64,000 bases of DNA from Dehalococcoidia bacterium. GTDB taxonomy: Bacteria > Chloroflexota > Dehalococcoidia > Lucifugimonadales > UBA3495. Below are positions 3,095 to 61,598 of the stretch, one piece after another. Below the pieces are notes generated by a model, which had not been told where the DNA came from, did no database searches, and was given only the letters and a program-made list of their open reading frames with translations. Positions within the stretch are counted from its first letter, which is position 1; every line of letters starts with the position of its first letter. A program made the position numbers and the translations under genes. The DNA is taken from positions 235,522-299,521 of the forward strand of contig CBDCUJ010000001.1 in assembly GCA_965222595.1 (NCBI GenBank), given 5' to 3'.

Positions 3095-4806
3095 CCCGAA
3101 TCCACCGAAGGGATGAGGTTACAGCAGCGTAATGGGCGATGAGGGGCAAGTGGAGGTGATGATCCGGGCACGATTTCGGGTAGAGGGGGCCGGTGGCTGT
3201 ATTCAGTCGCCGCGGGGAGACCTTGTGACCGTCTGCGGACGTTGGGCAGGGTGAGATGGTGGGGAGAGGACGCAGCGAGAGACCCACGCGGACCGGGCTG
3301 GCGCGAGTTGGCGGGGACGTTCGGTTGTCCGTTGGGTGGCTCAGGCACCGACGTTGCCGTCAGGCAGGGAGTGGAATCGCTCGCAATCGAGCGAGGGCGC
3401 GGCTGAACTGGGTTTCCCAGGGCCAATGCTTGGGAAGATGCAAAGTGAGGCGGCGCGCCGAGCGGGTGAGCCGTCCCGCCAGAGCGAAGAACCGTCGCCG
3501 GAGGGTCTTGGTGGTCACCACCTGCTCGCCCAGACCGATCCGCGCTGTCCAACGGGCCAGGTTGTGGGCCATCACCTGTATCGCCAGCCAGGCGGCGTTG
3601 GCGGCGAAGCGGCCCGACGGAAGATGATTCAACCCCACGCCGTACTTCAGGTCTCGAATGGCGTTCTCTATCTCGGCATGGCGACGGTGGTCGGCCTCCA
3701 GTTCGAGCATCTCCCCGTCCCGGTCGGTGATGAAGCCGTGATAGCTGTAGGTAGCGAAGAGGGCCAGTTGGGAACCGGGCGTGGGCTTCACCCGCCGGAC
3801 GATGAGCCGCACCGGTGCGGCGCCGGGCTCAGTCCGGAAGGGGACGTAGGTGGTCTCCGCTACATCGGCGGCGCCGTCCATCCAGTATGGGATGGGCCTC
3901 CAGTCCGCCTCGGGTATGGCCTCGATCAGATTGCGCAGGCTCTGGCGCTGGCGGACGGTGATGGAGAAGCGGACCTTCGTCTTGCGACAGACGGTCACGA
4001 CGGCATGGGTATAGAAGCCGCTGTCGGCCCGCACCGTGAGTTGTCCTTTGGCACCGGCGTAGCGTACCCGCCCCACCGTCTCCCGCAGGAAGTGGGCGGC
4101 GCCCCGAACGGTGTTGGCCCGGCCCTCCCGCAGCCGGGACATCAGCACGTCGCCGGTTCCGGCAGCGATGGCCAACAGCGGGTGATAGCCCCGCTTGCCG
4201 GTATAGCCGTGGTGACGCGCGCCCTCCTTGGCCAGACCGTAGGTCTCGCAGATGGTGGAATCGAGGTCTATGGTGAACGGCGCGTCGCCGGGTCCCGCCC
4301 CAGCGGCCCAGGCCCGCGCCAGCAGCTCCCGGCTCACCCGGTCCAGTTGACGGACGTGGCCCCACCGGAAGCTACGCAGGAAAGTGCCCAGGGTGGATGG
4401 CGCCTTCACCGTGCCGCCCAGGGTGCGGGCTGTCGCCCCGGTGCGCAACGCATCAGCGTCGTCAATGCAGTCGCCGCCCGCCAGTGCAGACGCAACCAGG
4501 GTCATCATCTTGTCGCCGGTGTTGGCCCGCCCCGGAGCGCTGCCGAGATCAAGGTGATAGTCTACGAGTTCCCCCAGCCCCAGGTGTTGGGCGAGGGTGG
4601 CCGGCAGGAGCAGGCCGGCATTGGCCACCAGGCGGTGATCGTCAAAGACGATTTGGATCCGGTCGGGGTGGTTGCGTGGTAGCATCTATTGGGTGCTCCT
4701 TTTCCGGGGTCGGTTTTTTGTTGCAAAACCATTATCCCAGAAGCACAGGAGCACCTTCTTGCCACTTCAGAACACTGACCTGACGCCCTCCTTCGGTGGA
4801 TTCGGG
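3095..4806 (-). mobile_element. IS1380-family insertion sequence (copy 2)
   Basis: Perfect 17-bp terminal inverted repeats CCCGAATCCACCGAAGG (3095-3111) / CCTTCGGTGGATTCGGG (4790-4806). 5-bp target duplication CTAAG (3090-3094 and 4807-4811). 1712 bp with one transposase ORF. Confidence 0.85.
3360..4685 (-). CDS. IS1380-family DDE transposase
   Basis: 441-aa ORF with FTIDLDSTICETYGLAKEGARHHGYTGKRGYHPLLA, LIVRRVKPTPGSQLALF, HRRHAEIENAIRDLKYGVGLNHLPSGRFAANAAWLAIQVMAHNLARW. Confidence 0.9.
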   Translation of the reverse strand: MLPRNHPDRIQIVFDDHRLVANAGLLLPATLAQHLGLGELVDYHLDLGSAPGRANTGDKMMTLVASALAGGDCIDDADALRTGATARTLGGTVKAPSTLGTFLRSFRWGHVRQLDRVSRELLARAWAAGAGPGDAPFTIDLDSTICETYGLAKEGARHHGYTGKRGYHPLLAIAAGTGDVLMSRLREGRANTVRGAAHFLRETVGRVRYAGAKGQLTVRADSGFYTHAVVTVCRKTKVRFSITVRQRQSLRNLIEAIPEADWRPIPYWMDGAADVAETTYVPFRTEPGAAPVRLIVRRVKPTPGSQLALFATYSYHGFITDRDGEMLELEADHRRHAEIENAIRDLKYGVGLNHLPSGRFAANAAWLAIQVMAHNLARWTARIGLGEQVVTTKTLRRRFFALAGRLTRSARRLTLHLPKHWPWETQFSRALARLRAIPLPA

Positions 4807-8657: not shown

Positions 8658-8700
8658 GCGCTGCTGCGCTTGAGTCCTAATCCGGCCAAGAGCAGGGTCA

Positions 8701-8830
8701 TTTAATTGTCCCCTCCCCCAAATGGGGGAGGGTTAGGGTGGGGGCGTCCTCTAACGTGAGCGACCAACGTTATTGCCAGCATTTCACCCTCACCCCAACC
8801 CTCGCCCTCAAGGGAGAGGAAGAATTAAAA
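8701..8830. repeat. Repeat element (copy E): two head-to-head hairpin+GGTTAGG cores bounded by TTTAATT/AATTAAA
   Basis: TTTAATTGTCCCCTCCCCCAAATGGGGGAGGGTTAGGGTGGGGGCG ... CACCCTCACCCCAACCCTCGCCCTCAAGGGAGAGGAAGAATTAAA. Lies between the M20 stop and the cytochrome c start. Confidence 0.6.
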
Positions 8831-8853
8831 GGCCCTGCAGCCAAGAGGACTCG

Positions 8854-9348: not shown

Positions 9349-9635
9349 GGGAGAGAAACGGGCGCTGGGGTACCTCAGTTGTTCGTGTCAATTTGTACTG
9401 CGAATGCTTCGCTGGGAGGTTCTCATATAGCCTCGGTACGCCATTCCGTGATCGTGCATTCGAATATCACCGTGTCGGTTTCTCTGGGCGTAGGATTTAT
9501 CAGAGGCAGTCTTCCTCATCACTGCCTCGGACCTTCGTTTCCCTGGAGCATCTGCCGGAAAGAGACGGCAGGGGCTCAACGTGATCTGGAACAACGTCTC
9601 GACCCACTTGGGCCCGGCGATGCGGTCGTCCTTAG

Positions 9636-9765
9636 AGGGTGTGTGACAAGTCCCCTCTCCCTCTGGGAGAGGGTTAGGGTGAGGGCGTCCCGTAAGCTCT
9701 GCAGGAGCAACTAAGGCAAACTCACGCCAACTCATTGCACTCGAAAACGGTTTGTCACACACCCT
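9636..9765 (+). repeat. CTTAG-flanked stem-bounded repeat element (copy D) with hairpin+GGTTAGG core
   Basis: CTTAG (9631-9635), AGGGTGTGTGACAA, GTCCCCTCTCCCTCTGGGAGAGGGTTAGGGTGAGGGCG, ..., TTGTCACACACCCT, CTTAG (9766-9770). Confidence 0.65.
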
Positions 9766-10004
9766 CTTAGATATCCGGGCCTGACCCTGCGTCTGGTGAG
9801 CATGCCGCGAACAGCCCTGACTTCAACATCTATGAGGCTATCTGGAACTCGGTGTAGGAGGAAACGATAGGAAACAACGGCGCTGGTGCAGGATAGACGG
9901 AGCGCTTTTTTGCCAGCCTAGTCGACAGAAGAGAGGAGGTCAAACGGCGTTGCTGGACCGTCCTCCGATCTTGCATCGATTACGCACATCGTGCCGTTCA
10001 ATTT

Positions 10005-10616
10005 TCAGCCTCTGGCGAGGTCCGCAATCATTATTTTCGCTGTAGTGAGATATTCATCAACTTTGGCTACGGAATGTCTTTGGCGAGAGGTCAAGAACGC
10101 TTCTATTCTGACCCTGCTATTAGCACCGTAGACTACTCGAACCACTTCTCTGTAACCCTGTCTCGCCTGCGGACTCCTGTGTGCCAAGAAGTTCCGCACC
10201 TTTCTCATTTCACTGAGTATGTTTCCGTGGGCTTGCGCATAGACTATGAAGGGATCAGTAGAATTGAGAACTTGCGAAGTGCTATCGCGAATGTCCTTTA
10301 CGCTTGTCCATCTCAGGTAATTCTTCCTTTCTGATCGACCAAACGTGAGCATGGCGGATCTTGCGCCACCCATACTGTTGGCAGGGAAGAGCCTTGCCGG
10401 ACGAGCCCCGTTTACATAGGGGGCTCCTGCCACCAGTTTGCAAGCTATATCTTCGATCGCGCTCTCAACAATCGAGAACAGCCGCAGTATTATCAACTCG
10501 GTAATCAAGTATTGGTGCACTGGGGCCAGGGACCGGGAGTTTGCCCTAAATGTTTCAAGACGCTCGATATCAGTGGTAGTATTTCGTACAGTAACATCCA
10601 CCCGAGGTGCAGGCAT
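10005..10616 (-). CDS. HEPN-like protein (Rx4H motif), partner of the DUF262 gene
   Basis: 203 aa. C-terminal helix carries MRKVRNFLAHRS (R-x4-H HEPN signature). Its start ATG overlaps the upstream gene stop (TAATG). Looks AT-richer than the flanks by eye. Confidence 0.55.
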   Translation of the reverse strand: MPAPRVDVTVRNTTTDIERLETFRANSRSLAPVHQYLITELIILRLFSIVESAIEDIACKLVAGAPYVNGARPARLFPANSMGGARSAMLTFGRSERKNYLRWTSVKDIRDSTSQVLNSTDPFIVYAQAHGNILSEMRKVRNFLAHRSPQARQGYREVVRVVYGANSRVRIEAFLTSRQRHSVAKVDEYLTTAKIMIADLARG

Positions 10617-11611
10617 TATGTAAGGAACCTTCGTATGTAAGCATCCCTAATGGTCCGCTGCCGGATTCGTTGCGTTGTAGCGGTGGAAGCAATAACGAAC
10701 TGCTGGTCGTCATAAGTCTGATGTTCGCTATCTTGATGATATCGCGCATCGATTTCGTACAATGAATTCACGACCTTCGGGACTTCCAATTTTTTCATGG
10801 AATCCATCACCAGAAGCAGAGAGAAAAGGACAGGTTGACGGCCGAAGATAGTGTCGCGAATTACCGACGGCTCGATATCGGCAATGAAGTCAAATAGTCT
10901 GTCCATTCGCTGAGCCACTTCAGTTTGACATGGGAAGTCTTCTTCAAACTTTTTATAAATATTGCAAAGCCTCGTAGGACTGAAATCGGACAAGCCCTCA
11001 AGCAAATTCAGTGCCAAATCTGATATGAACTGCACTTCGTTCATCCTTGCGATGTCATTTGCAGTGAATATATTGTAAGTCCGCCACAGTTCCACCCTTG
11101 ACGATGCCTGCCGTAGACAGAATTGCTTGAATTCTCCGCTGAATGCCGAGTTACGTTTTTCTTGGGAATTAAGGCTTTTGCTTACAGAGTTGATCCTACC
11201 GAAAATGTCTATTACATCCGGATCCGTAGCACCCAGGAGATACCCAACCGGTATTCCGGTCAGCAAGAATGCCTCTCGCTCTGTTCTGTTCAACTGAGAG
11301 AAGGTTTGTCTGGCTCCGTTCTCCGGGTGTTTCACTGAGAACTCATTGCGGCAGAATCCGAGGATTGCCCTAATTCGCTGCTGTCCGTCGACGACTTCCC
11401 GGACGGTTTTCCCACGATCCAAGTCCAGTGAATACCTGATGTAGATGGCTGGAATGGGCTTTTGCTCAATGAGTGTATTAATCAAATACGATTTCTGAGG
11501 CGTGGTCCAAACCGAGCGCCGTTGATACCAAGGAGAGTAGTTGAGCTCCCCCGAGTTATCGAGGTTTCGGATATCCTGCACCATCAACGACTGATAATCA
11601 ACTCTGTCCAT
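10616..11611 (-). CDS. DUF262 (ParB/Srx-fold, GmrSD N-terminal-like) domain protein without a DUF1524 nuclease domain
   Basis: YSPWYQRRSVWTTPQKSYLINTLIEQKPIPAIYI and VVDGQQRIRAILGF (DGQQR motif). 331 aa. Confidence 0.8.
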   Translation of the reverse strand: MDRVDYQSLMVQDIRNLDNSGELNYSPWYQRRSVWTTPQKSYLINTLIEQKPIPAIYIRYSLDLDRGKTVREVVDGQQRIRAILGFCRNEFSVKHPENGARQTFSQLNRTEREAFLLTGIPVGYLLGATDPDVIDIFGRINSVSKSLNSQEKRNSAFSGEFKQFCLRQASSRVELWRTYNIFTANDIARMNEVQFISDLALNLLEGLSDFSPTRLCNIYKKFEEDFPCQTEVAQRMDRLFDFIADIEPSVIRDTIFGRQPVLFSLLLVMDSMKKLEVPKVVNSLYEIDARYHQDSEHQTYDDQQFVIASTATTQRIRQRTIRDAYIRRFLT

Positions 11612-11738
11612 ATCTCACCCGCATGTACCATCACTCACAAATCTGCCTTGGTTCGGTAGCATTAGCCGAAGTATATTGACCCACCCAGATTTCGCAATAG
11701 CTTGACCTAAACCAAGGTGAAACGTGCAGTTAGTCTAA

Positions 11739-11831
11739 GCCCCATTTTCTGTACCAAGTTCAGTGCGAATTGTGCGGGTCATGGTCTTGCCCCATTTTCT
11801 GTACCAAGCTTAGTGCGAGTTTTGCGGGTCA
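11739..11831 (+). repeat. Two imperfect 43-bp direct repeats with a 50-bp period
   Basis: GCCCCATTTTCTGTACCAAGTTCAGTGCGAATTGTGCGGGTCA (11739-11781) and GCCCCATTTTCTGTACCAAGCTTAGTGCGAGTTTTGCGGGTCA (11789-11831), 39/43 identical. Located between the DUF262 promoter region and the tRNA 3' end. Confidence 0.8.
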
Positions 11832-11874
11832 ATCCGCTGTTTCAGCCAATGCGCTAAGCTTCCAAAAGCAGAAG

Positions 11875-11946
11875 TGGGCCCGGCAGGGATCGAACCTGCC
11901 ACCAGCCGGTTATGAGCCGGCTGCTCTACCACTGAGCTACGGGCCC
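11875..11946 (-). tRNA. tRNA with CAT anticodon (elongator Met, or Ile2 if lysidine-modified)
   Basis: Reverse complement GGGCCCGTAGCTCAGTGGTAGAGCAGCCGGCTCATAACCGGCTGGTGGCAGGTTCGATCCCTGCCGGGCCCA folds as a cloverleaf: 7-bp acceptor stem, GCTC/GAGC D stem, GCCGG/CCGGC anticodon stem with loop CTCATAA, TTCGATC T loop. G1-C72 argues against an initiator. No encoded CCA. Confidence 0.9.
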
Positions 11947-18292: not shown

Positions 18293-18381
18293 GGGTGTGT
18301 ACACCTGAGGCAATCGCTAGCCGGTTGTAGTTGAGGGTACAAGGTTTCGTCTGAACTGCAGGTATCGCGTATCGGGTTAAA

Positions 18382-18966
18382 TTAAGTGACCAACACCGTA
18401 CGCAAGTCATCGAAGAAGATATTCAGCGAAGCTACGTTTTGACGGGCCCGGGAGAGGTCCATCGTACCGACAATATCATCTGCATATTCAGCGCCGTTCA
18501 GCAAGGAATCAACTCCTCCTTCTCGAAAAAGCCTTCTGAGTTGCGTTTTCAAAGCCGCCCAATCGCAGCCGGCAGGTATCGGCGGTGTGGTATTTGCTTG
18601 GGCAATGTTTCTAATTGCTTCCTGGTCGGCCAGATACCAAGCTTCTATGCAGGGGTTTGGAGCCGCAATTACCAAGGGGCCTATATAACCGTCGGCATTT
18701 CGCAGCAACGCACTCTTGGTTTCCGGTACTCCCCGGCAGTCCGTATCCTGAGCTGCTACCACCATGTCGTATTCGGCATAACCGGATTTCAGGTAGTCCA
18801 AGACATATCTTCGGAATGACCCCTCCATGCTGGGTTTCCCACCGGTCGCGTTGCGTGTATCGAAATCGATCACTTTTCCGGGAACGATTTGGCTGGCGAC
18901 CTTACGTATAAGACTTGTTATGAAATTGTGATGTCCAACGTCCTCGAGGAACAGCCCTATTCTCAC
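18382..18966 (-). CDS. DUF4276/TOPRIM-like protein (putative nuclease partner of the upstream ATPase)
   Basis: 194 aa. TOPRIM-type acidic residues LFLEDVG (Glu) and AAQDTDC (DxD), plus CIEAWYLAD. GTG start 3 nt after the ATPase stop. Confidence 0.6.
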   Translation of the reverse strand: MRIGLFLEDVGHHNFITSLIRKVASQIVPGKVIDFDTRNATGGKPSMEGSFRRYVLDYLKSGYAEYDMVVAAQDTDCRGVPETKSALLRNADGYIGPLVIAAPNPCIEAWYLADQEAIRNIAQANTTPPIPAGCDWAALKTQLRRLFREGGVDSLLNGAEYADDIVGTMDLSRARQNVASLNIFFDDLRTVLVT

Positions 18967-18969
18967 CGA

Positions 18970-20223
18970 TTAGCCACCTAAGTCCCCACGGATAATCCTC
19001 TCGTCTAGCGCCGTGTCAATGTCTTCTGGCTTGAACATCGGCGCCTTGAGCGGGAAGGGGGTGAACTGGGATCGGTGCCCATCGCGGTACGCAACTACCA
19101 AATCAGCGTTTTCAAAGTACTTGGGCATCAGTGGAGAATGGGTCGTGACGAGTAATTGTTGGCTCATCGACCGGGCTCGTTCCGACAATATTTTGGCGGT
19201 TAGCTCGATCCTCCGGGGATGGACTCCATTTTCGGGCTCTTCGAAACCGATAGTAGTATTGTCTTCTTGGGACGACAGAATAGCCAATAAACCCAATACT
19301 CTCAGGGTGCCTTCGGAAATGACTCGCGATGAATAAAAAACATCGTCCTCAACAATCAACAACTCCACGAACCCTTCGTCGGTGCGTCGGACGTCCATGC
19401 CGGAAACCGCTGGAACGACCTGCCGCAGAGTCTTGGACAGCGCATCGAATTGTCTAGGATTCTTGGCTTTCAGATTGAAGAAATAACCCGCCAGATCCTG
19501 ACCGTTCGGTCCGATCGCCCGCACTTCCTTTAGCGGCGTATTCTCCCGCATGAGTATTGGATCGAAATAGTAAAAACTCCAGCGGGCCAATTCCTCTTTG
19601 AATGCAGTAATATGCGGATAATGCGGCGCGTATAAAGGCTGTGAGACAATAGTGTAAGGTAGTCCGACATCGTGCATAGTCGGATGTGCCTGCCCTTCCA
19701 TTCGTAAGGAGAGTTTGTCACCCGTTCGTTCAAAGAAGGGGTTTCTACTCTTCCGCTCGCTCCCGTCTTTGTTCAACGCTACGAGCCGCTCGTCAGCTAC
19801 CCTCAACACTGCGGTCTCCGGCAAAAACTCAACCGCTAGAGAATATCGCAAGTTGGGTTCAGTAACGTGCCTGGTGCTGTAGGTCGTTAGTCCTTCTCGG
19901 AGATTCCTAATTCGTTTCTCCGTTACGTTAACCGCTTGATCAGAAAGAGAAACATCAACGGTTATCCTTAGTTGAAGATTCGACTGCTGAAGCGAATGCT
20001 GAATGCCGCGTTCGGTGAAGAACGCTTCCACTGGAATTCCGCGGTGGGCGTCAAAAGCAGTTTTCAGGTCAGGTTGGGTCGCCATCGCGCTCAAAAGACG
20101 GAGCGCATCAAACAGATTGCTCTTGCCGGAGGCATTCGGTCCGACGATCACAGTGAGTGGACGAAGCGTCAACTTGACGTCGCAAAGCGATTTGTAGCCG
20201 GAAATTTCTACTCGGGTAATCAT
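18970..20223 (-). CDS. ABC/OLD-like AAA ATPase (AAA_21/AAA_15 type)
   Basis: MITRVEISGYKSL..., Walker A VGPNASGKSNLFDAL, Walker B region IGFEEPENGVHPRRIE, LLVTTHSPLM. 417 aa. Confidence 0.8.
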   Translation of the reverse strand: MITRVEISGYKSLCDVKLTLRPLTVIVGPNASGKSNLFDALRLLSAMATQPDLKTAFDAHRGIPVEAFFTERGIQHSLQQSNLQLRITVDVSLSDQAVNVTEKRIRNLREGLTTYSTRHVTEPNLRYSLAVEFLPETAVLRVADERLVALNKDGSERKSRNPFFERTGDKLSLRMEGQAHPTMHDVGLPYTIVSQPLYAPHYPHITAFKEELARWSFYYFDPILMRENTPLKEVRAIGPNGQDLAGYFFNLKAKNPRQFDALSKTLRQVVPAVSGMDVRRTDEGFVELLIVEDDVFYSSRVISEGTLRVLGLLAILSSQEDNTTIGFEEPENGVHPRRIELTAKILSERARSMSQQLLVTTHSPLMPKYFENADLVVAYRDGHRSQFTPFPLKAPMFKPEDIDTALDERIIRGDLGG

Positions 20224-25929: not shown

Positions 25930-26000
25930 GGCGCCACTTTAAGACACAAGCCGCCCCAGGCGCAATTGCCGGTAATCTCTCCCCCGGTCCCCCTCCCTTG

Positions 26001-26060
26001 GTATCCAGGAGGGCCCGGTGGTATCCAGGAGGGCCCGGTGGTATCCAGGAGGGCCCGGGT
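26001..26060. repeat. Three tandem copies of a 20-bp unit GTATCCAGGAGGGCCCGGTG
   Basis: Units at 26001-26020, 26021-26040 and 26041-26060 (the last ends GGT instead of GTG). Lies 72-131 nt upstream of the minus-strand start at 25929. Confidence 0.9.
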
Positions 26061-29208: not shown

Positions 29209-31143
29209 ATGGTACAACAAGGACAGATCGACCACCTGCTTCAGGAAACCGGCGAGATCGCTCCCCCGGCAGCGCTGGTGGCGCAAGCGACCCTCCAAGA
29301 CTTCGAGGGCGCTTACCGCGACTCCATGGAGTCCCCGGAGGTGTTCTGGGAGGGTGTGGCCTCGGAACTGGAATGGTCCCGCCGGTGGGACAAGGTCTTC
29401 GAGTGGGACTACCCGACTTTCCGATGGTTCCTGGGGGCGCGGTGCAACATCACTCGAAATTGCCTTGACCGTCACCTGACCAACGGCAACAAGAACAAAG
29501 CGGCCTTCATCTGGCTGGGTGAGGACGGCTCCGAACGAGTCTACACCTACGGCAGGCTGGCCCAGCTGGTGAACCGGTTCGCCAACGGGCTGCGCTCCTT
29601 GGGAGTAGGCAAGGGCGACCGCGTGGTCATCTACATGCCGCTGACACCGGAAGGGGCTATCGCGATGCTGGCCTGCGCCCGAGTAGGCGCGGTCCACAGC
29701 GTGGTGTACGCCGGCTTCAGCGTCGGCGCATTGCGCGAGCGGATAATCGACGCCCAAGCCAAGGCGGTGATTACCGCCGACGTCGGCTATCGCCGGGGCA
29801 ACGAAGTGGGCCTGAAGAGCATCACCGACCAAGCGGTGGCCAACCTGGACGTGGTGGAGCACGTGGTGGTCTGGAGGCGCAAGCCCCCCCTTATTCCCTC
29901 CAATGATGGGGGGAATAAGGGGGGGACGCTGGACCCCCGGGAAGTCGATTTCGATGAGTTGGTGGCCCGGGGCGACGTGGACTGCCCGGCCGAGGAGATG
30001 GACTCGGAAGACCCTCTCTACATCCTGTACACCAGCGGCACCACCGGGAAGCCCAAAGGAGTGCAACACGTACACGGTGGTTACATGGTGGGCACCTACT
30101 ACCATTTCAAGACGTTCTGGGACGTGAAAGACGACGACGTTTTCTGGTGCACTTCGGACATCGGCTGGGTGGTGGGCCATAGCTACATAGTCTACGCCCC
30201 CCTCGTCGCGGGGGCCACCACCGTGTTCCGCGAAGGCGCCATCGACTACCCTCATCCTGGCGTGTTCTACGAAATTATCGAGAAATACGGAGTAAACGTC
30301 ATTTTCACGGCGCCCACCGCCCTGCGCATGCTGATGCGCTACGGCGAGAAATACCCCCAGGGGTATGACCTGCGCTCCCTTCGGTTCCTCACCTGCGCCG
30401 GCGAGCCGCTGAACCCCGAGGCCCTGCGCTGGACCTACGAGCATATCTGCGGCAGCGGCCGGTGGGGCCACGTGGTGGACAATTGGTGGCAGACGGAGAC
30501 CGGCGGGCCGTGTCTGGGCACCACCGCCACCATGCCGGTGAAGCCGGGCCGGGTCGGCCGGCCGTTGCCGGGGGCCGAAATGGACATCGTGGACCGGGAG
30601 GGCCAGCCCATCACCGAGCCGGACAAGGGCGGCCTCTTGGTGATTAAACGGCCTTTCCCCCATTTCTTCCGGACAGTGTTCGGCGACCCGGAGCGCTACT
30701 CCCAAGACTGGAACACCATTCCCGGAGTGTACTTTACAGGCGACGTGGCGCTGCGGGACGCCGACGGTTACTACATGGTGGTGGGCCGCGCCGACGACGT
30801 GCTCAACGTGGCCGGACACCGCATCGGGTCCGCGGAGGTGGAGAGCGCCTTGGTGTCGCACCCGGCGGTGGCCGAGGCGGCGGTCATCGGCAAGCCCGAC
30901 GAGCTGCGCGGGGAGTCGATCAAGGGCTTCGTCACGCTGCGCGCGGGCAACGATCCTTCAGACAGCATGGTGGACGCCTTGAAGCTGCACGTTCGAAACG
31001 AATTGGGCCCCATCGCCGTCCCCGCAGAGCTCGAATTCACTCCCACTCTCCCCAAGACCCGCTCCGGAAAAATCATGCGCCGCCTGCTAAAAGCGCAGGA
31101 ATTGGGCTTGGACCCCGGCGACATCACCACCCTGGAGGAGTAG
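29209..31143 (+). CDS. acs: Acetyl-CoA synthetase (AMP-forming)
   Basis: 644 aa. AMP-binding YTSGTTGKPKGV and C-terminal LPKTRSGKIMRRLL. AGGAGGA RBS. Confidence 0.9.
   Translation: MVQQGQIDHLLQETGEIAPPAALVAQATLQDFEGAYRDSMESPEVFWEGVASELEWSRRWDKVFEWDYPTFRWFLGARCNITRNCLDRHLTNGNKNKAAFIWLGEDGSERVYTYGRLAQLVNRFANGLRSLGVGKGDRVVIYMPLTPEGAIAMLACARVGAVHSVVYAGFSVGALRERIIDAQAKAVITADVGYRRGNEVGLKSITDQAVANLDVVEHVVVWRRKPPLIPSNDGGNKGGTLDPREVDFDELVARGDVDCPAEEMDSEDPLYILYTSGTTGKPKGVQHVHGGYMVGTYYHFKTFWDVKDDDVFWCTSDIGWVVGHSYIVYAPLVAGATTVFREGAIDYPHPGVFYEIIEKYGVNVIFTAPTALRMLMRYGEKYPQGYDLRSLRFLTCAGEPLNPEALRWTYEHICGSGRWGHVVDNWWQTETGGPCLGTTATMPVKPGRVGRPLPGAEMDIVDREGQPITEPDKGGLLVIKRPFPHFFRTVFGDPERYSQDWNTIPGVYFTGDVALRDADGYYMVVGRADDVLNVAGHRIGSAEVESALVSHPAVAEAAVIGKPDELRGESIKGFVTLRAGNDPSDSMVDALKLHVRNELGPIAVPAELEFTPTLPKTRSGKIMRRLLKAQELGLDPGDITTLEE
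29884..29925. repeat. Perfect 15-bp-stem palindrome embedded in frame in acs
   Basis: CCCCCCCTTATTCCC (29884-29898), 12-nt loop, GGGAATAAGGGGGGG (29911-29925). Encodes PPLIPSNDGGNKGG. Confidence 0.85.
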
Positions 31144-33520: not shown

Positions 33521-33790
33521 AAGGTCTACTACTTCCGCGAATTTCCTTATCACGAATACCGCGATGAGGAGGGGGCCGAGTATTCGTCGCGGCTGCCTTT
33601 TCCCCATAGCTTCTTCGACCCCTAGCAGGCCAACCAGACACCGTCTCTCGAAAAACTGAAGTGCCTGCACCGTGAGCTGGGCATGGAGCACCTCTTCAGG
33701 TACGGCCAAGAATCCAAGACGTCCCAGGAGGTCACCATGTCCAAGATCGGCCTGTTCGGCAAGGAAGTGCTGCCGGTTATCAAGACTTAG
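33521..33790 (+). pseudogene. Remnant of a luciferase-like (LLM) flavin/F420-dependent oxidoreductase gene
   Basis: An N-terminal-like KVYYFREFPYHEYRDEEGAEYSSRLPFPHSFFDP, an in-frame TAG (33623-33625), then a C-terminal-like GQESKTSQEVTMSKIGLFGKEVLPVIKT, compressed into 90 codons. No proper start. Confidence 0.4.
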
Positions 33791-33909
33791 AAACTATCTC
33801 AAAACTGATGGCGCCTTTCATAATCATCTGTTTTGGCGTCAATTACCCGGCGGGGTCCACCCCCATCCTAACCTTCCCCCTGAGGGGGAAGGGACTTTTG
33901 AGATAATTT
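33791..33909 (-). repeat. CTTAG-flanked stem-bounded repeat element (copy F)
   Basis: CTTAG (33786-33790), AAACTATCTCAAAA, ..., CCACCCCCATCCTAACCTTCCCCCTGAGGGGGAAGGGAC, TTTTGAGATAATTT, CTTAG (33910-33914). Confidence 0.65.
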
Positions 33910-34011
33910 CTTAGTGAATTTATACTTGATATACAATACTGTAATAGAATGCCAACTAACATGGCCGGCGCCCGGCGCGCGGGCTGAATACAGGCCGGTG
34001 GACTTTCCGAA

Positions 34012-36042: not shown

Positions 36043-36142
36043 CGGAAGAGCGTCACGCCTTTCATCGAGCCTTAACGCGGTGCCCGTCCACGAGGTTAGC
36101 GACAGCAAACGGTTGCTATAATGGCCCCGGAAGGTGGCCGCC

Positions 36143-37228
36143 ATGATAACGAACATTTCTCTGCGAAACTTCAAGTGCTTCCGCGAACTGGAAGTCAACC
36201 CCAAGCTGATTACGGTCTTCATCGGCCCCAACGGCACCGGCAAGTCCAGCGTCCTGCAGGCGCTGCTGCTGCTGAAGCAGTCGCTAGGGACAGACCAAAT
36301 TAACTATCAGGGAGAGTTTATCAACCTGAGTGCACCGGCTGATTTGGTTCCCAATTTCCTGTCGGAGCCGCTGCCGACGTATTTGGAACTCAAGGGGGGA
36401 AAGGTTACCGAGGCAACCCAGGAAGTCGACGAATTCCAATTTGCGGCAGAGTTTACATCCAATTTGCGGCTTTTTTCTCCCGGAAATCTAGAAGATCCGA
36501 CGCAAACCGGAGTGCCAGGGAAATTCGCTCCCGTTGGCCTTGTACTAAACCGATTAGCCATCGTACCAGCGGTAAGAGGCTTGGTGCGACCGAGATACGA
36601 ATTGGGCGCCAACTACTCTGAACAAGTACCATTGCATCGCGGTCTCAGCGGTCAGGAAGAACAGTTGGCAACAAATCTTGGCTATAGTCGTTCTTTGGAA
36701 GAAAAGCTCTCCACATTGCTTCAGAAGGTGACTGGCACAGGGTTGCGCGCCGATGTTGTCCCCTCCAACTCTGTAGAAGTGAAGTCGATGACCCCATCCG
36801 GCGCAGTCAATATGGTTGCAGCAGGATTTGGCTCGAACGCCCTAATCCTGCTGCTTCACCAACTGATTAGCGCGGAGAAAGGCGCAACGGTGCTGATCGA
36901 GGAGCCGGAAATCCATCTTCACCCCAAGGCGCAGGCCGATTTAGCGCAGGTATTGGCCGAGACTGCTGTGGCCGACGGGAAGCAGGTAATCATGACCACC
37001 CACAGCGAACATCTCTTGAGCCGTTTGCTGACCCTAGTAGCGGAAAAGCGGCTGTACCCGGATCAATTGGCGATCTACTCCTTCGAGAAGGACGGCGAGG
37101 GGGAATGTTCAGCCAGCGAGATTGAAGTCACCGAGCGCGGACAAGTAACCGGCGGACTCACGGGATTCTTCGACGCTAATTTGGCAGAGATGGACCGGTA
37201 CGTTAAGGCGCTGCAAACAAAATCGTGA
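36143..37228 (+). CDS. ABC/OLD-like AAA ATPase with a DUF3696-like C-terminus
   Basis: MITNISLRNFKCF, Walker A IGPNGTGKSSVLQAL, VLIEEPEIHLHPKAQADLAQVL, VIMTTHSEHLLSRLL. ATG 36143 preferred over GTG 36134. Confidence 0.75.
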   Translation: MITNISLRNFKCFRELEVNPKLITVFIGPNGTGKSSVLQALLLLKQSLGTDQINYQGEFINLSAPADLVPNFLSEPLPTYLELKGGKVTEATQEVDEFQFAAEFTSNLRLFSPGNLEDPTQTGVPGKFAPVGLVLNRLAIVPAVRGLVRPRYELGANYSEQVPLHRGLSGQEEQLATNLGYSRSLEEKLSTLLQKVTGTGLRADVVPSNSVEVKSMTPSGAVNMVAAGFGSNALILLLHQLISAEKGATVLIEEPEIHLHPKAQADLAQVLAETAVADGKQVIMTTHSEHLLSRLLTLVAEKRLYPDQLAIYSFEKDGEGECSASEIEVTERGQVTGGLTGFFDANLAEMDRYVKALQTKS

Positions 37229-40297: not shown

Positions 40298-40749
40298 GCG
40301 GATCGCGCTCCCAAAGGGAAAATCAAGCTGGGCAAGCCGCTCCCAATGCGGCCGAAAGACGCCGGGATTGTACCATGGCGTCCGCTGGGAAGCGGATGGC
40401 CGTCAGCCTGTTTCGTGGGCTGTCCCCTGGGCTGCGTCCGTGTCGCAGAACCGGCCGCTGTCTTGCAACTCGGGGTCGATCTCCGCCCGTGTCCGTTCCG
40501 GTAGCGGCTCGAACGGGCCGTATGCGGCGAGGTAACGGCGGGCCAGTCCCGAAACAACCCTCAGGCCGCCACCTCTTGGACGATTCCTCGATGCCTCAGC
40601 CGGACCAGTCGAGGCGGTAGAACTGCGGCGGCGGCTCCAACTTGACAACACCGGCGGCTGAGCACATCATTAGGCAAAGCTTTTCGGACAAGACTACGCT
40701 AGGCGCGTTGTCACACTTTTACAATAGAATATCCCGCACAACAAGATCC

Positions 40750-40958
40750 AACGATGGAAGTGCCCTTCCCAGGGCTTGAACGGGGAAGCTGGTCAAAGTC
40801 CAGCACTGTCCCGCAACGGTAGGTCCCGATTTATCGGGGCGAGTCCGGTCCACGGCTTCCATCGATGTTCTTACCTTCGAGGAAAGGTACTGGCATAACC
40901 CGTTAGCCGCAAGAAGCCCTGTTCCTTCCCGGAGTAAGCGTTGGAACAGGGTTTTTTA
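40750..40958 (+). promoter_or_regulatory. Cobalamin (B12) riboswitch with an intrinsic terminator expression platform
   Basis: P1 GATGGAAG (40752-40759) pairs with CTTCCATC (40856-40863). Core AACGGGGAAGCTGGTCAAAGTCCAGCACTGTCCCGCAACGGTA (B12 box) and GAGTCCGG. Followed by a terminator hairpin. Sits upstream of BtuF-like ABC importer genes. Confidence 0.75.
40917..40957 (+). terminator. Rho-independent terminator (riboswitch expression platform)
   Basis: CCCTGTTCC (40917-40925), 17-nt loop, GGAACAGGG (40943-40951), then TTTTTT. Confidence 0.7.
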
Positions 40959-42118: not shown

Positions 42119-43255
42119 GTGGCCGAAAGGAGCAGCAAGCCCCCCCTTCACCCCCCCAGTGGGGGGGTTGTAAGGGGGGAGGGACCGGCGGCCTTGGATC
42201 TCGGCAGAATCGCCGGGGGGTTGGTCGGCCTTCGCTACCCGTGGTGGCGGCTGGCCTTCGGCGGGGCCGCTTTCTTAGTAGCGGCGGTATTCGCGGCCAG
42301 CCTTGGCTCCGTCGACATTCCCTTCCTCGCGACGGCCCAGATCGTGCTCTCCCGGCTGCCCGGCATTGACTCCCCGGCGAATACTCCGGCGGCGTGGGAC
42401 ACTATTGTGTGGCAACTCCGGCTGCCCCGGGTAGCCTTGGCCGGGATCGTGGGAGGCGGCCTGGCGATGGCCGGCGCCGCCTACCAGGGGCTCTTCAAGA
42501 ACCCGCTGGCCGATCCCTACCTGGTGGGGGTCGCGTCGGGGGCGGGGCTGGCGGCAGTTATCGTTCTGCTGACCGGAGTGCCTTTATTCATCGGCGGGTT
42601 CAGCTTCCTCCCCGCCGCGGCATTCGTTGGCGGCGTCTCAGCGGTGGCGGTGGCCTATTCCGTCGCCCGTAGCTCCCGGGGAACGCCCCTGACCACCCTG
42701 ATCCTGGCGGGCGTGGCCATTGCCTCACTGGCCGGAGCGGTAACCAGCCTGCTGATGATCCGCAGCGACCCAGAGCTCCGTCCGGTCATTAGCTGGCTCT
42801 TGGGCAGCTTCATCTCGTCAGAGTGGAGCGAGTGCGCCATCGTTCTGGCCTACCTGGCCCCCAGCATGGTCGTGCTCTTGGGGTTCGGCCGGGTATTGAA
42901 CGTGCTGCAGTTGCGGGAGGAACACGCCTCGATGCTCGGCGTCGAAGTCGAAAAGGTGAAGTTGCTCCTCATCGTGGCGGCCACCATGACCACAGCCGCC
43001 GCCGTATCCTTCACCGGGCTCATCGGCTTCGTCGGGCTGATCGCCCCCCACGTCGTGAGGCTGATCTGGGGGACCGACTACCGGTTCATCCTGCCCATGT
43101 CGGCCATTCTCGGGGCCACGTTCCTGGTGCTGGCCGACCTGGCGGCCCGCACTGTGGCGAGCCCCGGCGAACTGCCCGTTGGTATCGTCACCGCATTCTG
43201 CGGCGCGCCATTCTTCCTGTACCTGCTCCGGCGCCGCGGCGCCGGTATGGTCTAG
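42119..43255 (+). CDS. FecCD/BtuC-family ABC permease
   Basis: Multi-TM protein with LAGVAIASLAGAVTSLLM and GLIGFVGLIAPHVVRL patterns. Start uncertain because the N-terminus contains a translated repeat hairpin. Confidence 0.8.
   Translation: MAERSSKPPLHPPSGGVVRGEGPAALDLGRIAGGLVGLRYPWWRLAFGGAAFLVAAVFAASLGSVDIPFLATAQIVLSRLPGIDSPANTPAAWDTIVWQLRLPRVALAGIVGGGLAMAGAAYQGLFKNPLADPYLVGVASGAGLAAVIVLLTGVPLFIGGFSFLPAAAFVGGVSAVAVAYSVARSSRGTPLTTLILAGVAIASLAGAVTSLLMIRSDPELRPVISWLLGSFISSEWSECAIVLAYLAPSMVVLLGFGRVLNVLQLREEHASMLGVEVEKVKLLLIVAATMTTAAAVSFTGLIGFVGLIAPHVVRLIWGTDYRFILPMSAILGATFLVLADLAARTVASPGELPVGIVTAFCGAPFFLYLLRRRGAGMV
42140..42179. repeat. C-rich/G-rich hairpin repeat within the permease N-terminal coding region
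   Basis: CCCCCCCTTCACCCCCCC AGT GGGGGGGTTGTAAGGGGGG. Inner 7-bp stem (42151-42157 / 42161-42167). Encodes PPLHPPSGGVVRGE. Confidence 0.7.
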
Positions 43256-47294: not shown

Positions 47295-47336
47295 GCTGCC
47301 AAATCGCCGGGACTATTGCCCGCCCGCCCCCCCTTC

Positions 47337-47460
47337 GTAACTGTTCAGACTTCGGGGGATCTGCTTGACCAGCGGCACCGCCGACAGGGCAATTTAGCTT
47401 TGAGCAAGGCTGGATCCCCGTCCTCTGCGGGCATTCGTCCCCTCAACTCTGAACAGTTAC
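47337..47460. mobile_element. MITE-like element (copy B) with GTAACTGTTCAGA termini
   Basis: Same 13-bp termini as copy A (47337-47349 / 47448-47460). 9-bp direct repeat CCCCCCTTC at 47328-47336 and 47461-47469. Lies between ctaB and coxB. Confidence 0.75.
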
Positions 47461-47562
47461 CCCCCCTTCAAATACGTTGACAGTGCCGACGGTGCTGTGA
47501 TAACGTCCCCACCGCAAACAAGCACACCGCGCAAGCGGCTGTCGCTTTAGGGGAGTCCGAAT

Positions 47563-53915: not shown

Positions 53916-55361
53916 ATGCGGCGCCCCAATATAGCACAACACGTAACCACGCTCTTGGCCATGCTCCCCGCTCTCGTCCTGGCCACCGCCTGCGGGGCGG
54001 CAACACCGACCCACTCGCCCGCCCCGACGCCGACGCCGACGCCGACCAGCTTGCCCACCCCTACGCCTTCGCCGCTGGTGCTGCTGCCCCAAGACGAAGC
54101 TCCCCATGACGAGCCTGTCGAATGGTGGTACTTCAACGGGCTGCTCACCGACGGCGCGGGCAACGAATACAGCTACCACTTCGTCGCCTTTAAGGGCCCG
54201 GGCCCCGCCAACGCCGTCCCCCACCTGATGCACGTCAGCCTGGGCGACCACCACCGCCGAGAGCATTTCGCGGCCGAGACGCCGGCCCTTTCGCCGGTCG
54301 CCGAAGACGCCGTCGGTGTTGACGTCGAGGCCGGCGGCTGGACGATGCGGGGCGACGGCGCAGCCTACCAACTCCGCTTCAGTCTGGGCGGGCGCACCGT
54401 CGAAATCGAGGCTGTCCCCCAACGGGAGCCGGTGCTGCACGGCGGCACGGGCCTGATCAGCCTCGGACCGGTTGGGGACACCTACTACTATTCCCGGACT
54501 CGCCTGGAGACCGCCGGTTACATCGAGGACCAAGATGGACATCGGACGGTCAGCGGCACGAGCTGGATGGACCACCAATGGGGCGCCGTGTCCGGCCGCA
54601 CCGTAGGCTGGGACTGGCTGAGCCTGCACCTCGACGACGGGGCAGACCTGATGGCAGTCGTCGTACGGGACCCCGGCACCCGCCAATTATTCGCCAACTA
54701 CGGCACTTACGTCGGTCCCGGTGGCAAGGTAAGCCACCTGGACGGCCAAGACGTTTCAATTACGCCAACCGGTTCCTGGAGCAGCCCCGCCACCGGCATC
54801 ACCTACCCCATGGGCTGGAAGCTCGAAATCCCGCCGCTGGACCTGAGCATCGAGGCAGTACCGGTGCTGGAACAAGCGGAGTTCGCCGTTAGCGACTTCA
54901 TTGCGGCAGCCTATTGGGAGGGCGCGGTCAATGCGTCGGGAACGCTGGCCGGTTCGCCCATAACCGGCGCGGGATTCATGGAACTGGTAGGATACGACCG
55001 GAACAACTGGAAGCGCCGGAACCGCCGCCGGAATAGGGCGGTGTTCGGAACACATATCGCAAGCAACGGAGCCTGGCCCATCCAACCGGCCGGACCAGTC
55101 AGAACCGCCGCGGAAATGGTAATCTATACTGCAAATCGCCCCGGGTCCTCACAAAAGAGCGAAAACGCTGGGACAACGCAGGAAGTTCAACTCTTGGAAC
55201 TTCAGGCACCCGTTGCTGGCGAGGTGCGGTCCGCTTACAACCTGGTGACCAATTTGGCCAGTAATACCCATCTGGGCCTATATCAGCTTGATCTCCTTAG
55301 GGAACCTCTGAACAAGTTATGGTCATTGAGGCGAAAGCCGAAATCTCGGAGGAGAGCTTAA
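53916..55361 (+). CDS. AttH/CrtC-like (carotenoid 1,2-hydratase family, lipocalin-like) lipoprotein with an unexplained C-terminal extension
   Basis: Lipobox LVLATAC, PT-rich linker, PVEWWYFNG, YYYSRTRL, WMDHQWG, GFMELVGYD (the usual family C-terminus near 55000). The ORF then continues about 115 codons into repeat copy C. The start could also be ATG 53961. Confidence 0.65.
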   Translation: MRRPNIAQHVTTLLAMLPALVLATACGAATPTHSPAPTPTPTPTSLPTPTPSPLVLLPQDEAPHDEPVEWWYFNGLLTDGAGNEYSYHFVAFKGPGPANAVPHLMHVSLGDHHRREHFAAETPALSPVAEDAVGVDVEAGGWTMRGDGAAYQLRFSLGGRTVEIEAVPQREPVLHGGTGLISLGPVGDTYYYSRTRLETAGYIEDQDGHRTVSGTSWMDHQWGAVSGRTVGWDWLSLHLDDGADLMAVVVRDPGTRQLFANYGTYVGPGGKVSHLDGQDVSITPTGSWSSPATGITYPMGWKLEIPPLDLSIEAVPVLEQAEFAVSDFIAAAYWEGAVNASGTLAGSPITGAGFMELVGYDRNNWKRRNRRRNRAVFGTHIASNGAWPIQPAGPVRTAAEMVIYTANRPGSSQKSENAGTTQEVQLLELQAPVAGEVRSAYNLVTNLASNTHLGLYQLDLLREPLNKLWSLRRKPKSRRRA

Positions 55362-55441
55362 CGGTATTAGCTATCAAATGAGCGCCGGCACCCCCATCCT
55401 AACCTTCCCCCAGCGGGGGGAAGGGACTTGTTCAGAGGTTC
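55301..55441 (-). repeat. CTTAG-flanked stem-bounded repeat element (copy C)
   Basis: CTTAG (55296-55300), GGAACCTCTGAACAAGT, ..., CACCCCCATCCTAACCTTCCCCCAGCGGGGGGAAGGGAC, TTGTTCAGAGGTTC, CTTAG (55442-55446). Confidence 0.65.
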
Positions 55442-55474
55442 CTTAGCACGGACCCGGAGTGAAGAATCGGGATA

Positions 55475-60407: not shown

Positions 60408-61598
60408 CTAGGCCGAAAGCCCCAAGTGCATAGGGAGCTGTACGGCTTGGTTGCGGAAGGGCGCGATTTCACCTGGCATGACCCCCGCCTTCAGAACCTC
60501 TCGAATACGGGAATCTGCTGCAAGAGATTCCACGATAGAGCCATTTCTGCCGGGTGTAATGCAAAGCACTTCCCATCCATCTATCCCTTGGTCGCAAAGC
60601 AGATCTGGGCTGTGGGTTGTCAGAATGACTTGGCGCCGTTCGCTGTGCCGCCCGTCTCCGCGCCGCCGGCTGACAGGTACGCTCATGCGATAAATCAAAC
60701 CTGCCAAGCGCAGCACGATGTCCCGATTCAGGGATATTTCCGGTTCTTCCAGCAGAAGCGGGCCGCTACGTTCTAGTAGTGACCAGAACAGGCCAATTAG
60801 GCGCAGTGTGCCATCAGAAAGCTGGTCTTCCCTCTGCGAAACGTTATGGGCTCGCCAATTTTCGAAGCGAACTCTTAAATGGGGTTGCCCGTTCGTGGAA
60901 TCCCTCTCAAAGGTGATTTCTTCCAGCTGCGGCACAATATGCGACAGAGAAGCTGCGATTTTTTTCAGGCGGCTCTGACGGATATTACTGTTTGTGCCTG
61001 CAATTCTCTCCAAGAAGCCCTGACCAAACGGGTCGTTTTCCAGACGGTTACCGCCGATTTCAGCCCCATAACGCACTAGCTGAGGCACCAAGTGGAAGTA
61101 GGTAACTTCGTCGAAGAACTCGGCCACGGCGCGGAACTGCCGGTTAGCGTTAATCTGTTCCAACGCGGTTTCTGTACGAAGCTCAGGGTCGAGTTTGTCG
61201 TCATGGTCTGGGCGTCGAAGCAGAGTTTCGCCGTTATGCTCAACGATTTCTTCTTGAACTACAATGCGGTGATTTCCGCGCTGCTCAACCGCAAATACTA
61301 GGCGGTACACCCACTCGACTAGTTCATCCGCGTCCCGGCTCAGATGTACTTCAATGCCGACACCACCACCTGAATGGGCTGAGAGGCTGCGAATCTGAGG
61401 CACACCGCCGCGCCTACCCACTGCGGTTTGAAGGCCACCGCCTTCGCGTTTGGCAACGTCCCGGAGAAAGCGAATGGCATCGAGCAAGTTGGACTTGCCC
61501 GACGCATTCGGCCCAATGATGAAGGCGCGGTCGCGCATTGGCACATCCATGTCGGTGAAATTGCGCCAGTTGGTCAGTTTGAGCCGGGTGATTATCAT
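60408..61598 (-). CDS. ABC/OLD-like AAA ATPase (AAA_21/AAA_15 type)
   Basis: MIITRLKLTNWRNF, Walker A IGPNASGKSNLLDAI, LLLEEPEISLNRDIV, VILTTHSPDLL. 396 aa. Confidence 0.8.
   Translation of the reverse strand: MIITRLKLTNWRNFTDMDVPMRDRAFIIGPNASGKSNLLDAIRFLRDVAKREGGGLQTAVGRRGGVPQIRSLSAHSGGGVGIEVHLSRDADELVEWVYRLVFAVEQRGNHRIVVQEEIVEHNGETLLRRPDHDDKLDPELRTETALEQINANRQFRAVAEFFDEVTYFHLVPQLVRYGAEIGGNRLENDPFGQGFLERIAGTNSNIRQSRLKKIAASLSHIVPQLEEITFERDSTNGQPHLRVRFENWRAHNVSQREDQLSDGTLRLIGLFWSLLERSGPLLLEEPEISLNRDIVLRLAGLIYRMSVPVSRRRGDGRHSERRQVILTTHSPDLLCDQGIDGWEVLCITPGRNGSIVESLAADSRIREVLKAGVMPGEIAPFRNQAVQLPMHLGLSA

Follow-up and report, generated by a model that had tools for sequence, protein, structure and literature searches.

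Copy D, an element at positions 9631-9770 of a 64,000-nt stretch of the genome of a Dehalococcoidia bacterium (the window; GenBank assembly GCA_965222595.1, contig CBDCUJ010000001.1, positions 235,522 to 299,521), is very probably a miniature inverted-repeat transposable element (MITE) that has the ends of an IS5-family insertion sequence (IS) and carries one BoxC/PIT core as a passenger. Both of its components, the IS5-family MITE and the BoxC/PIT/TM_ECO repeat, were known before, and their combination is not a new kind of system. An earlier description made from the letters alone (the sequence-only reading) had grouped copy D with two further elements, here copies 2 and 3, on the grounds that each has CTTAG at both sides, paired arms of 15-17 nt and a common core, and inspection of the three elements bore this out. 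The feature is real, non-random and correctly described, but it was over-interpreted there, and the core was not recognised as the published BoxC/PIT/TM_ECO motif.

Without its flanks, copy D spans 9635-9766 (132 bp) and reads C/TTA/GAGGGTGTGTGACAA-GTCCCCTCTCCCTCTGGGAGAGGGTTAGGGTGAGGG-(66 nt)-TTGTCACACACCCTC/TTA/G, where slashes mark junctions. The terminal inverted repeats (TIRs), which form the arms, are complementary at 15 of 15 positions, and with the near-palindromic CTTAG included, an inverted-repeat scan gives 19 nt at 95%. The core starts with GTC and a pyrimidine arm CCCTCTCCC (9653-9661), followed by the loop TCT, a purine arm GGGAGAGGG (9665-9673), the loop TTA and a mirror tail GGGTGAGGG (9677-9685); the 9-bp hairpin with a 3-4-nt loop and the tail GGTTAGGRTGRGGG noted previously are thus present. 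The first ~10 nt of the interior, CGTCCCGTAA, are similar to the sequence that follows the core in another element of the window, at 8693. The open reading frames (ORFs) that overlap copy D gave no protein-family match; they translate the repeat and indicate no coding capacity. Peptides of the form HPHPNPLP.GEG had been taken for translated cores, which we confirmed, and the core explains the recurrent spurious '...HPNPLPxGEG...' ORFs in annotation. No Rfam family was found in copy D at the gathering threshold.

The arms of copy D lead to an IS. In genome searches, 132 core matches were obtained in at least 119 loci, mostly without paired arms, indicating that the arms are not a property of the core. 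A genome-wide check had been proposed in which armless copies would mark the three window cases as coincidental; most of these core matches from other genomes do lack arms; for the three window cases, chance is excluded on the grounds given below. When TTA plus the copy D arm was searched for instead, 39 metagenome loci were found (handles beginning with L denote the loci compared), mostly elements of 82-261 bp with the same ends and unrelated interiors. One locus, L136 (1301-2183; also L156), contains an 882-bp element reading cttCTTAG/AGGGTGTGTGACAAAGGG...CCCTTTGTCACACGCCCT/CTTAGatat, with copy D's 15-nt end and flanks. Its two overlapping ORFs encode DUF4096 (PF13340) and DDE_Tnp_1 (PF01609), and both halves match NCBIfam transpos_IS5_3. 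Judged by these predicted proteins and termini, the L136 element is a full IS5-family IS with the ends and flanks of copy D.

We examined the target in 18 non-redundant elements with the copy D TIR, for which the search had left the far end unconstrained. The far-end trinucleotide is TTA in 11/18 and TNA in 16/18, the preceding host base is C in 12/18 and the following one is G in 12/18. As read from these junctions, the target of copy D-type elements is C/TNA/G with the trinucleotide duplicated, and since the element starts with G and ends with C, CTTAG appears at both junctions. Within the IS5 family, target duplications of 3 nt have been described for the IS1031 group (cf. PMC2516522). The ends of copy D are those of a two-ORF, DUF4096-plus-DDE IS5-family IS (NCBIfam transpos_IS5_3; IS427/IS1031-like), and in the mechanism that we propose a transposase of that type would cut C/TNA/G with a 3-nt stagger, so that TTA is duplicated. 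Because copy D encodes nothing, an IS5-family transposase would have had to move it in trans.

Copies 2 and 3 have the same plan as copy D, with the core on the minus strand. The TIRs of copy 2 are GAAACTATCTCAAAA (33790-33804) and TTTTGAGATAATTTC (33896-33910), and its type-B core (33860-33895, minus strand; the core types are described below) lies beside the latter; copy 3 has GGAACCTCTGAACAAGT (55301-55317) and its complement (55426-55442), with a type-B core at 55391-55427 on the minus strand. The insertion of copy 3 changes the 3' end of an AttH/CrtC-like ORF. Both would be elements of the same kind built on other IS5-family ends, those of copy 3 being IS5-group ends with a 4-bp TTAG (YTAR) duplication. 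A scan of IMG/VR located a ~1.2-kb IS (L178) that reads CTAG/GGAACCTCTGAACAAGTCCAACG...CTTCAGACCTTCC/CTAG and encodes a predicted 324-aa transposase scoring 349 bits on transpos_IS5_4; the copy 3 arm is identical to its left end (IRL) at 17/17 positions. Members of the copy 3 family are flanked by CTAA, CTAG, TTAG or TAAG, which is the YTAR 4-bp duplication of the IS5 group. On the evidence of ends and duplications, two of the three CTTAG elements are of different IS5-family groups with overlapping targets. For the copy 2 arm, the IMG/VR scan returned mostly AT-rich chance matches and no partner IS. In addition, the right end of IS5A from E. coli K-12, GGAAGGTGCGAACAAGTCCCT (L173, record 273955-275149), agrees with the arm-core junction of copy 3 at 17/21 positions, and subterminal sequence of IS5 type may overlap the conserved GTCCC head of the core. 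The IS5A right end also shares GAACAAGTCCCT with that junction.

That the arms pair within each copy stands, but they are not completely different between copies, as had been claimed: copies D and 2 have 8/15 positions in common, and the inner arm block ACAAGT is common to copies D and 3, with AAAAGT in copy 2. A DDE transposon carries its one recognition sequence at either end, in inverted orientation, and elements of separate IS lineages are thus bound to have arms that differ yet are self-complementary; arms that differ between copies and pair within each are expected since the copies are built on different IS5-family ends. Each arm type is, moreover, a recurring family. The copy 2 arm with CTTAG recurs in L071 and in L122, where it runs off the locus; the copy 3 arm recurs in L078 (twice), L081, L119 and L177, flanked by CTAA or CTTAG; an arm of GTAAC type recurs in L121 and L131 and, diverged, in the Gallionella locus L109; and the arm of the 8693 element is found in L078 without a core. 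Within families, substitutions are uncompensated, as in L119 (left GGAACCTCTGCATAAGT, right AAGCCTCTGAACAA as reverse complement), in a 156-bp family (GAGGGTGTGTGACAA versus GAGCGTGTGTGAGAA) and in copy 2, whose arms differ by C/T, and the earlier view of the arms as covarying stems that point to a structured RNA or DNA does not hold. CTTAG on both sides whatever the core orientation is true of the three window copies, but not of same-family relatives, which are flanked by CTAA, CTAG, CTTAG or TAAG. One of the explanations offered at that stage, MITE subfamilies sharing a CTNAG target, proved essentially correct in the light of the full-length IS partners, the target-site statistics, the recurrence of arm types and an empty site.

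Chance as the source of the CTTAG-flanked elements is excluded. CTTAG is depleted in the window (28 sites on both strands versus 56 expected), yet it is found at 6/6 element boundaries, and the four longest near-perfect short-range inverted repeats in the 64 kb, one local hairpin aside, are these three elements and one related element.

The empty site was found for copy 2 among the relatives, which are ENA metagenome contigs with 95-98% DNA identity or with 96-98% identical ABC-transporter proteins (named SAR202 neighbours show 85-89% protein identity). Where the window reads atcaagaCTTAG[119 nt]CTTAGtgaattt, L129 and L130 read atcaagaCCCAGtggattt and L132 reads CCTAG. The copy 2 site in these three relatives is a clean empty site, minus exactly the element and one pentamer. 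At the same site, 420 nt upstream of the ABC transporter gene, L131 carries a different, degenerate core-bearing insertion, which suggests that the copy 2 site is an insertion hot spot. Other MITEs are polymorphic as well: the orthologous site in L121 lacks the GTAAC-type MITE of 47337-47460, and GTAAC-type MITEs of L121 and L131 (target-site duplications (TSDs) AGGGATTC and GaCTGCGG) are absent from the window. No clean empty site was found for copy 3, as the space from the AttH-like gene to gcvT is taken up by NucS-type genes in L120 and L121. At 55032-55473, the window has 264 nt of unrelated sequence plus copy 3 instead of the NucS-domain genes, and the AttH-like ORF is lengthened.

Table 1 Coordinates of copy D and its parts, of the related elements and of the resident IS in the window.
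Feature	Start	End	Strand	Remarks
Left TSD of copy D, TTA	9632	9634	.	Host C at 9631; element begins with the G at 9635, hence CTTAG
Left TIR of copy D, GAGGGTGTGTGACAA	9635	9649	+	Same as left end of the 882-bp predicted IS5-family IS in L136
BoxC/PIT/TM_ECO core of copy D, type A	9650	9685	+	Fits published pattern and E. coli Table 1 type A
Non-conserved interior of copy D	9686	9751	.	66 nt
Right TIR of copy D, TTGTCACACACCCTC	9752	9766	-	Pairs with left arm
Right TSD of copy D, TTA	9767	9769	.	Host G at 9770; CTTAG is 9766-9770
Copy 2	33787	33913	-	33786-33914 with outer bases; TSD TTA (33787-33789, 33911-33913)
Copy 3	55297	55446	-	55296-55446 with outer C; TSD TTAG (55297-55300, 55443-55446)
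Two-core element	2705	2866	.	Element 2713-2858; 8-bp direct repeat GCACTCCT (2705-2712, 2859-2866); TIR GTAACTGTTCAGACTT...
Two-core element	8685	8847	.	Element 8693-8837; 8-bp direct repeat GCCAAGAG (8685-8692, 8840-8847); TIR CAGGGTCATTTAATT / AATTAAAAGGCCCTG
GTAAC-type MITE, coreless	47328	47469	.	Flanked by CCCCCCTTC
Resident IS1380-family IS	3090	4811	-	IS 3095-4806; TIR CCCGAATCCACCGAAGG; TSD CTAAG; intact 441-aa transposase

The core itself has been described before. It corresponds to the E. coli BoxC repeat, renamed PIT (Hoyne et al. J Mol Biol 2000, 2002) and then TM_ECO (Holder et al. NAR 2015, PMC4666352), with the published pattern CCCTCNCCC N3-6 GGGNGAGGG N3 GGGNGAGGG (PMC4666352). 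The core of copy D fits this pattern exactly (CCCTCTCCC TCT GGGAGAGGG TTA GGGTGAGGG) and is near-identical to the E. coli type A copies. According to its describers, the E. coli sequence forms a triplex in vitro, as judged by circular dichroism and nuclear magnetic resonance, which was undetected in vivo by dimethyl sulfate footprinting; the motif has no promoter or terminator activity; 3610 copies were counted in 262 proteobacterial genomes; and no link to transposons, no transposases or integrases near the E. coli copies and no flanking consensus were reported (PMC4666352). It has also been called a G-quadruplex-hairpin switch (bioRxiv 10.1101/032615). In E. coli genomes, our core query matched a median of 17 places per genome, all unannotated. 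In the window, the tail GGTTAGGRTGRGGG occurs at seven real places, one-mismatch variants included, and every core sits inside a palindromic element with transposon ends and target duplications, although not all are flanked by CTTAG. Four of these cores had been missed by the sequence-only reading; they lie in two further palindromic elements (2713-2858 and 8693-8837) whose flanks are 8-bp direct repeats and not CTTAG. A scan of one genome per species with the pattern GTCCCYTC-N10-25-GGTTAGGRTGRGGG gave the at least 119 loci mentioned above, which span Chloroflexota (Dehalococcoidia), Planctomycetota, Pseudomonas, Enterobacter, Rhizobium, Gallionella, Nitrospiria (Nitrospirota), Acidobacteriota and others. 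Separately, at several Pseudomonas loci (L004, L014, L033, L038, L085 and others), the core forms the right end of a ~170-240-bp composite with conserved internal sequence, bounded on the left by another core that is oppositely oriented (tails outward, CTGGGG second loop).

Two main core variants were found, GTCCCCTCTCCC...GGGAGAGGG-TTA-GGGTGAGGG and GTCCCTTCCCCC...GGGGGAAGG-TTA-GGATGGGGG. Copies 2 and 3 have variant B (CCTTCCCCC / GGGGGAAGG / GGATGGGGG), which falls outside the literal published pattern but keeps all nine triads. In both variants the third block mirrors the second, and where the C-rich arm changes, the two G-rich blocks change with it; as laid out in the sequence, the order of blocks is the geometry predicted for an intramolecular purine-motif triplex. 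We scored 150 cores, collected with a pattern that fixes part of the motif and not phylogenetically independent as copies, and found the nine canonical triads (G.G-C, A.A-T, T.A-T) in 98/150. Triad 3 is C-G.G in 99, T-A.A in 41 and mixed in 10; triad 6 is T-A.A in 70, C-G.G in 47 and of the known 'mismatch' type G/A.A in 17. At both positions the three bases change together, and each of the four combinations is represented. Copy D is a perfect G3N3 x4 motif, but in variant B two of the four G3 tracts are reduced to GG while every triad is kept; triplex geometry thus fits the conservation better than a three-tetrad quadruplex, and for the same reason we rejected the G-quadruplex as the conserved feature. 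One DNA strand of the core can, as predicted from this three-way covariation, fold into a purine-motif triplex. Covariation by triplets is comparative support for conservation of the three-block geometry rather than of a three-tetrad G-quadruplex.

Several other explanations were weighed against an IS5-family MITE with a passenger core. Arms that differ between copies and pair within them might also belong to a structured noncoding RNA (or single-stranded DNA) whose closing stem is kept by selection while the arm sequence is free to vary. Consistent with this, the whole copy D element folds far better than shuffled sequences do (DNA -33.8 kcal/mol, z -5.8; RNA -64.7 kcal/mol, z -5.7, by ViennaRNA, which does not model triplexes), and the core (9651-9686) weakly resembles RF01762, whalefall-1 (18.9 bits versus a gathering threshold of 37). 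However, any element with TIRs folds this way, the arms match the ends of transposase-encoding ISs, target duplications and an empty site were found, the copies have interiors that are unrelated to one another, arm changes within families are uncompensated, and core matches in the at least 119 loci mostly have no arms. The Rfam comparison suggested by the sequence-only reading yielded no family at threshold; at permissive thresholds, only the whalefall-1 match and obviously spurious microRNA matches appeared. Whalefall-1 has a CUCUCC/GGAGAG hairpin and then AGGGUGAGG, which resembles the core, but with a spacing of 24 nt versus 3 nt, so that the core is not a member; this 'RNA motif' from metagenomes may be a remote relative within this class of repeats. 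The structured-RNA explanation is largely refuted, and we give it hardly any credence. Mobilisation of the CTTAG elements by the resident IS1380-family transposase, which likewise duplicates a CTAAG pentamer, is also very improbable. The IS1380 copy is flanked by CTAAG in the window and by CTAAA in L122 (83% identical), and it encodes the sole intact transposase seen near the elements. Its TIR CCCGAATCCACCGAAGG, however, is unlike all three arm types and shows no similarity to GAGGGTGTGTGACAA, and this end occurs only at the IS and at one chance site, whereas the exact TIR matches are IS5-family ISs; furthermore, IS1380 duplicates 5 bp, whereas relatives of copy 3 show 4-bp and D-type elements 3-bp duplications. 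The link to IS1380 drawn earlier from CTAAG therefore comes down to a shared target preference, with unrelated TIRs.

A stronger competitor, though still distinctly unlikely in our judgement, and one already among the options of the sequence-only reading, is that the core itself is mobile or invasive and inserts, by some process that acts on hairpin-forming DNA, just inside existing palindromes, so that MITEs are landing sites and not vehicles. The same TIR class exists with and without a core (GTAAC type at 47337 and in L121 versus 2713 and L131), and elements with the D-type TIR are mostly coreless. Cores lie beside at least 11 unrelated TIR types with the GTCCC end always toward the TIR, single cores occur in many phyla, tandem core arrays are found inside a MITE (L078), and L131 has its different core-bearing insertion at the copy 2 site. 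On the other hand, no otherwise identical pair of elements that differ only by the core was found, no junction or target could be defined, and no candidate enzyme is known, with no transposase or integrase near the E. coli copies (PMC4666352). Some 'solo' cores, moreover, resemble decayed MITE ends; L006 retains only the inner CTCAAAA of the copy 2 arm.

We thus return to copy D as a MITE in which the core would be a passenger, placed directly inside one TIR with its GTCCC end toward that TIR. Several observations weigh against this interpretation. In at least 11 TIR families, every TIR-adjacent core seen has its GTCCC end within 0-24 nt of the TIR and its G-rich tail toward the interior, a constant placement that the passenger model leaves unexplained. 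The window and ~230 kb from close relatives contain transposases of IS1380, IS1595 and IS3-like types, but none of the IS5 family with matching ends was found there; the ISs that share ends with the window copies lie on unrelated, taxonomically unassigned contigs from metagenomes and IMG/VR. For copy 2, the empty sites of the relatives have CCCAG or CCTAG in place of CTTAG, so an ancestral CTTAG target must be assumed. For copy D, neither an empty site nor a second copy with its exact interior was recovered: the sole relative with >90% identity in the adjacent M20 gene (L122) loses synteny at 8669, where the 8685-8847 element lies, and more distant SAR202 contigs have other neighbours around this gene. 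Recent mobility of copy D is consequently deduced from its perfect TIRs and TSD.

As for the origin of the core, our best guess is that it would be either structure-forming filler DNA captured in post-excision repair synthesis or an inherited, common subterminal module. PIT elements are reported to block DNA polymerase in vitro (PMC4666352), and cores might on this account, speculatively, be the filler that is preferentially fixed at element ends when the gap left by excision is repaired by synthesis. A search with a loose core pattern for full-length ISs with cores just inside both ends gave nine paired sites. A broader proposal, unlikely but in our view less so than an invading core, is that BoxC/TM motifs are a portable subterminal module of transposon ends that spreads between phyla in MITEs with exchangeable outer TIRs (IS5-family types with 3- and 4-bp TSDs and two types with 8-bp TSDs). 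The fixed position and polarity of the core and its triad covariation would then reflect a function of the folded strand in transposition or MITE genesis, for example stalling of repair or replication synthesis at the element end. If true, this would answer a question open since 2000, namely how and why the repeat is so conserved and so patchily distributed. BoxC/PIT/TM_ECO has been known in E. coli since the 1990s as a conserved repeat without an established function or mode of spread, and hitch-hiking in MITEs offers a concrete, testable route; the range of the motif is also extended to Chloroflexota, Planctomycetota and other phyla. Compared with the literature searched, its occurrence in MITEs of several TIR/TSD classes and outside Proteobacteria, the triad covariation and the fixed orientation to the TIR appear new.

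Other elements of the window and related loci were surveyed as well. The 2713-2858 element has two inverted cores with the GTCCC ends outward, and the same two-core class is found in L131 and L109; in the 8693 element, the right core is degenerate. In a more distant genome (L005), two cores follow right after the orthologous M20 peptidase gene. A second class of MITE has ends GTAACTGTTCAGA... and 8-9-bp duplications, contains two cores or none, and is polymorphic among close relatives; its loci are 2705-2866 and 47328-47469 in the window, L121 8095-8228, L131 ~18330-18500 and, diverged, L109 (Gallionella). Three head-to-tail cores with a 52-nt period lie in a copy-3-type MITE with a truncated left arm (L078 4036-4176), and L081 has two adjacent cores on the minus strand. 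Further hairpins were seen in genes. A C7/G7 hairpin with a G-rich tail (GCAAGCCCCCCCTTCACCCCCCCAGTGGGGGGGTTGTAAGGGGGGAGGGAC) is located at 42129-42185, at the annotated start of a FecCD permease ORF, and its first 20 nt are in common with a C/G-rich palindrome with a 19-bp stem at 29873-29925. The latter lies in frame within the acetyl-CoA synthetase gene (29209-31143), where it encodes ...PPLIPSNDGGNKGG..., and is an in-frame coding indel of ~9 codons, absent in L129 and present in L130-L132.

Copy D stands at the edge of a low-GC (49%) island, 10005-11946, that holds a GmrSD-type restriction gene pair beside a tRNA gene (11875-11946, minus strand) and a 43-nt direct repeat (11739-11781 / 11789-11831, 91%), and that looks like an integrated defence island. 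Genes for AAA_15/AAA_21 (OLD/ABC-type ATPase) proteins lie in lower-GC patches at 18970-20223, 36134-37228 and 60408-61598, and relatives have HicB, Uma2, Abi_C and HSDR_N instead at the 31-34 kb position; since the relatives carry different genes, these patches may be variable defence or toxin-antitoxin islets. A 20-mer, TGGTATCCAGGAGGGCCCGG, is present in three perfect tandem copies at 25999-26058, and a cobalamin riboswitch (40741-40874) lies upstream of a periplasmic-binding-protein/FecCD/ABC transport operon.

Among known systems, REP/REPIN repeats (RAYT, IS200/IS605-like) are likewise short, GC-rich hairpins that are often found as inverted pairs between genes; however, REPINs need a RAYT gene and a GTAG head and have no TIR-plus-TSD structure, whereas here DDE-type TIRs and duplications are present and a GTAG head is not. 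Integron attC sites, which resemble inverted repeats that keep their structure while varying in sequence, were rejected, as RYYYAAC/GTTRRRY core sites are missing and TSDs are present, and ends of IS200/IS605 type were rejected since such elements lack direct repeats and TIRs. Like BoxC/PIT in E. coli, the window motif is intergenic, and two copies are often inverted with their tails inward. It differs in lying inside elements with TIRs, target duplications and insertion polymorphism, and in its host, a SAR202-type member of Chloroflexota, which takes the range beyond the reported 262 proteobacterial genomes. Eukaryotic PIF/Harbinger-Tourist elements are a related system, in which TTA is duplicated within a CTTAG-centred target. 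The window elements also resemble IS5-derived bacterial MITEs (IS427/IS1031 with 3-nt TSDs; IS5 group with 4-bp YTAR), which are small and noncoding, have perfect TIRs that are those of full-length ISs, show TTA or TTAG duplications at C/TNA/G and vary in presence between close relatives. Unlike these, the window elements have interiors that do not derive from the partner ISs by simple deletion; unrelated interiors occur under one TIR, and one module, the core, is common to different TIR families.

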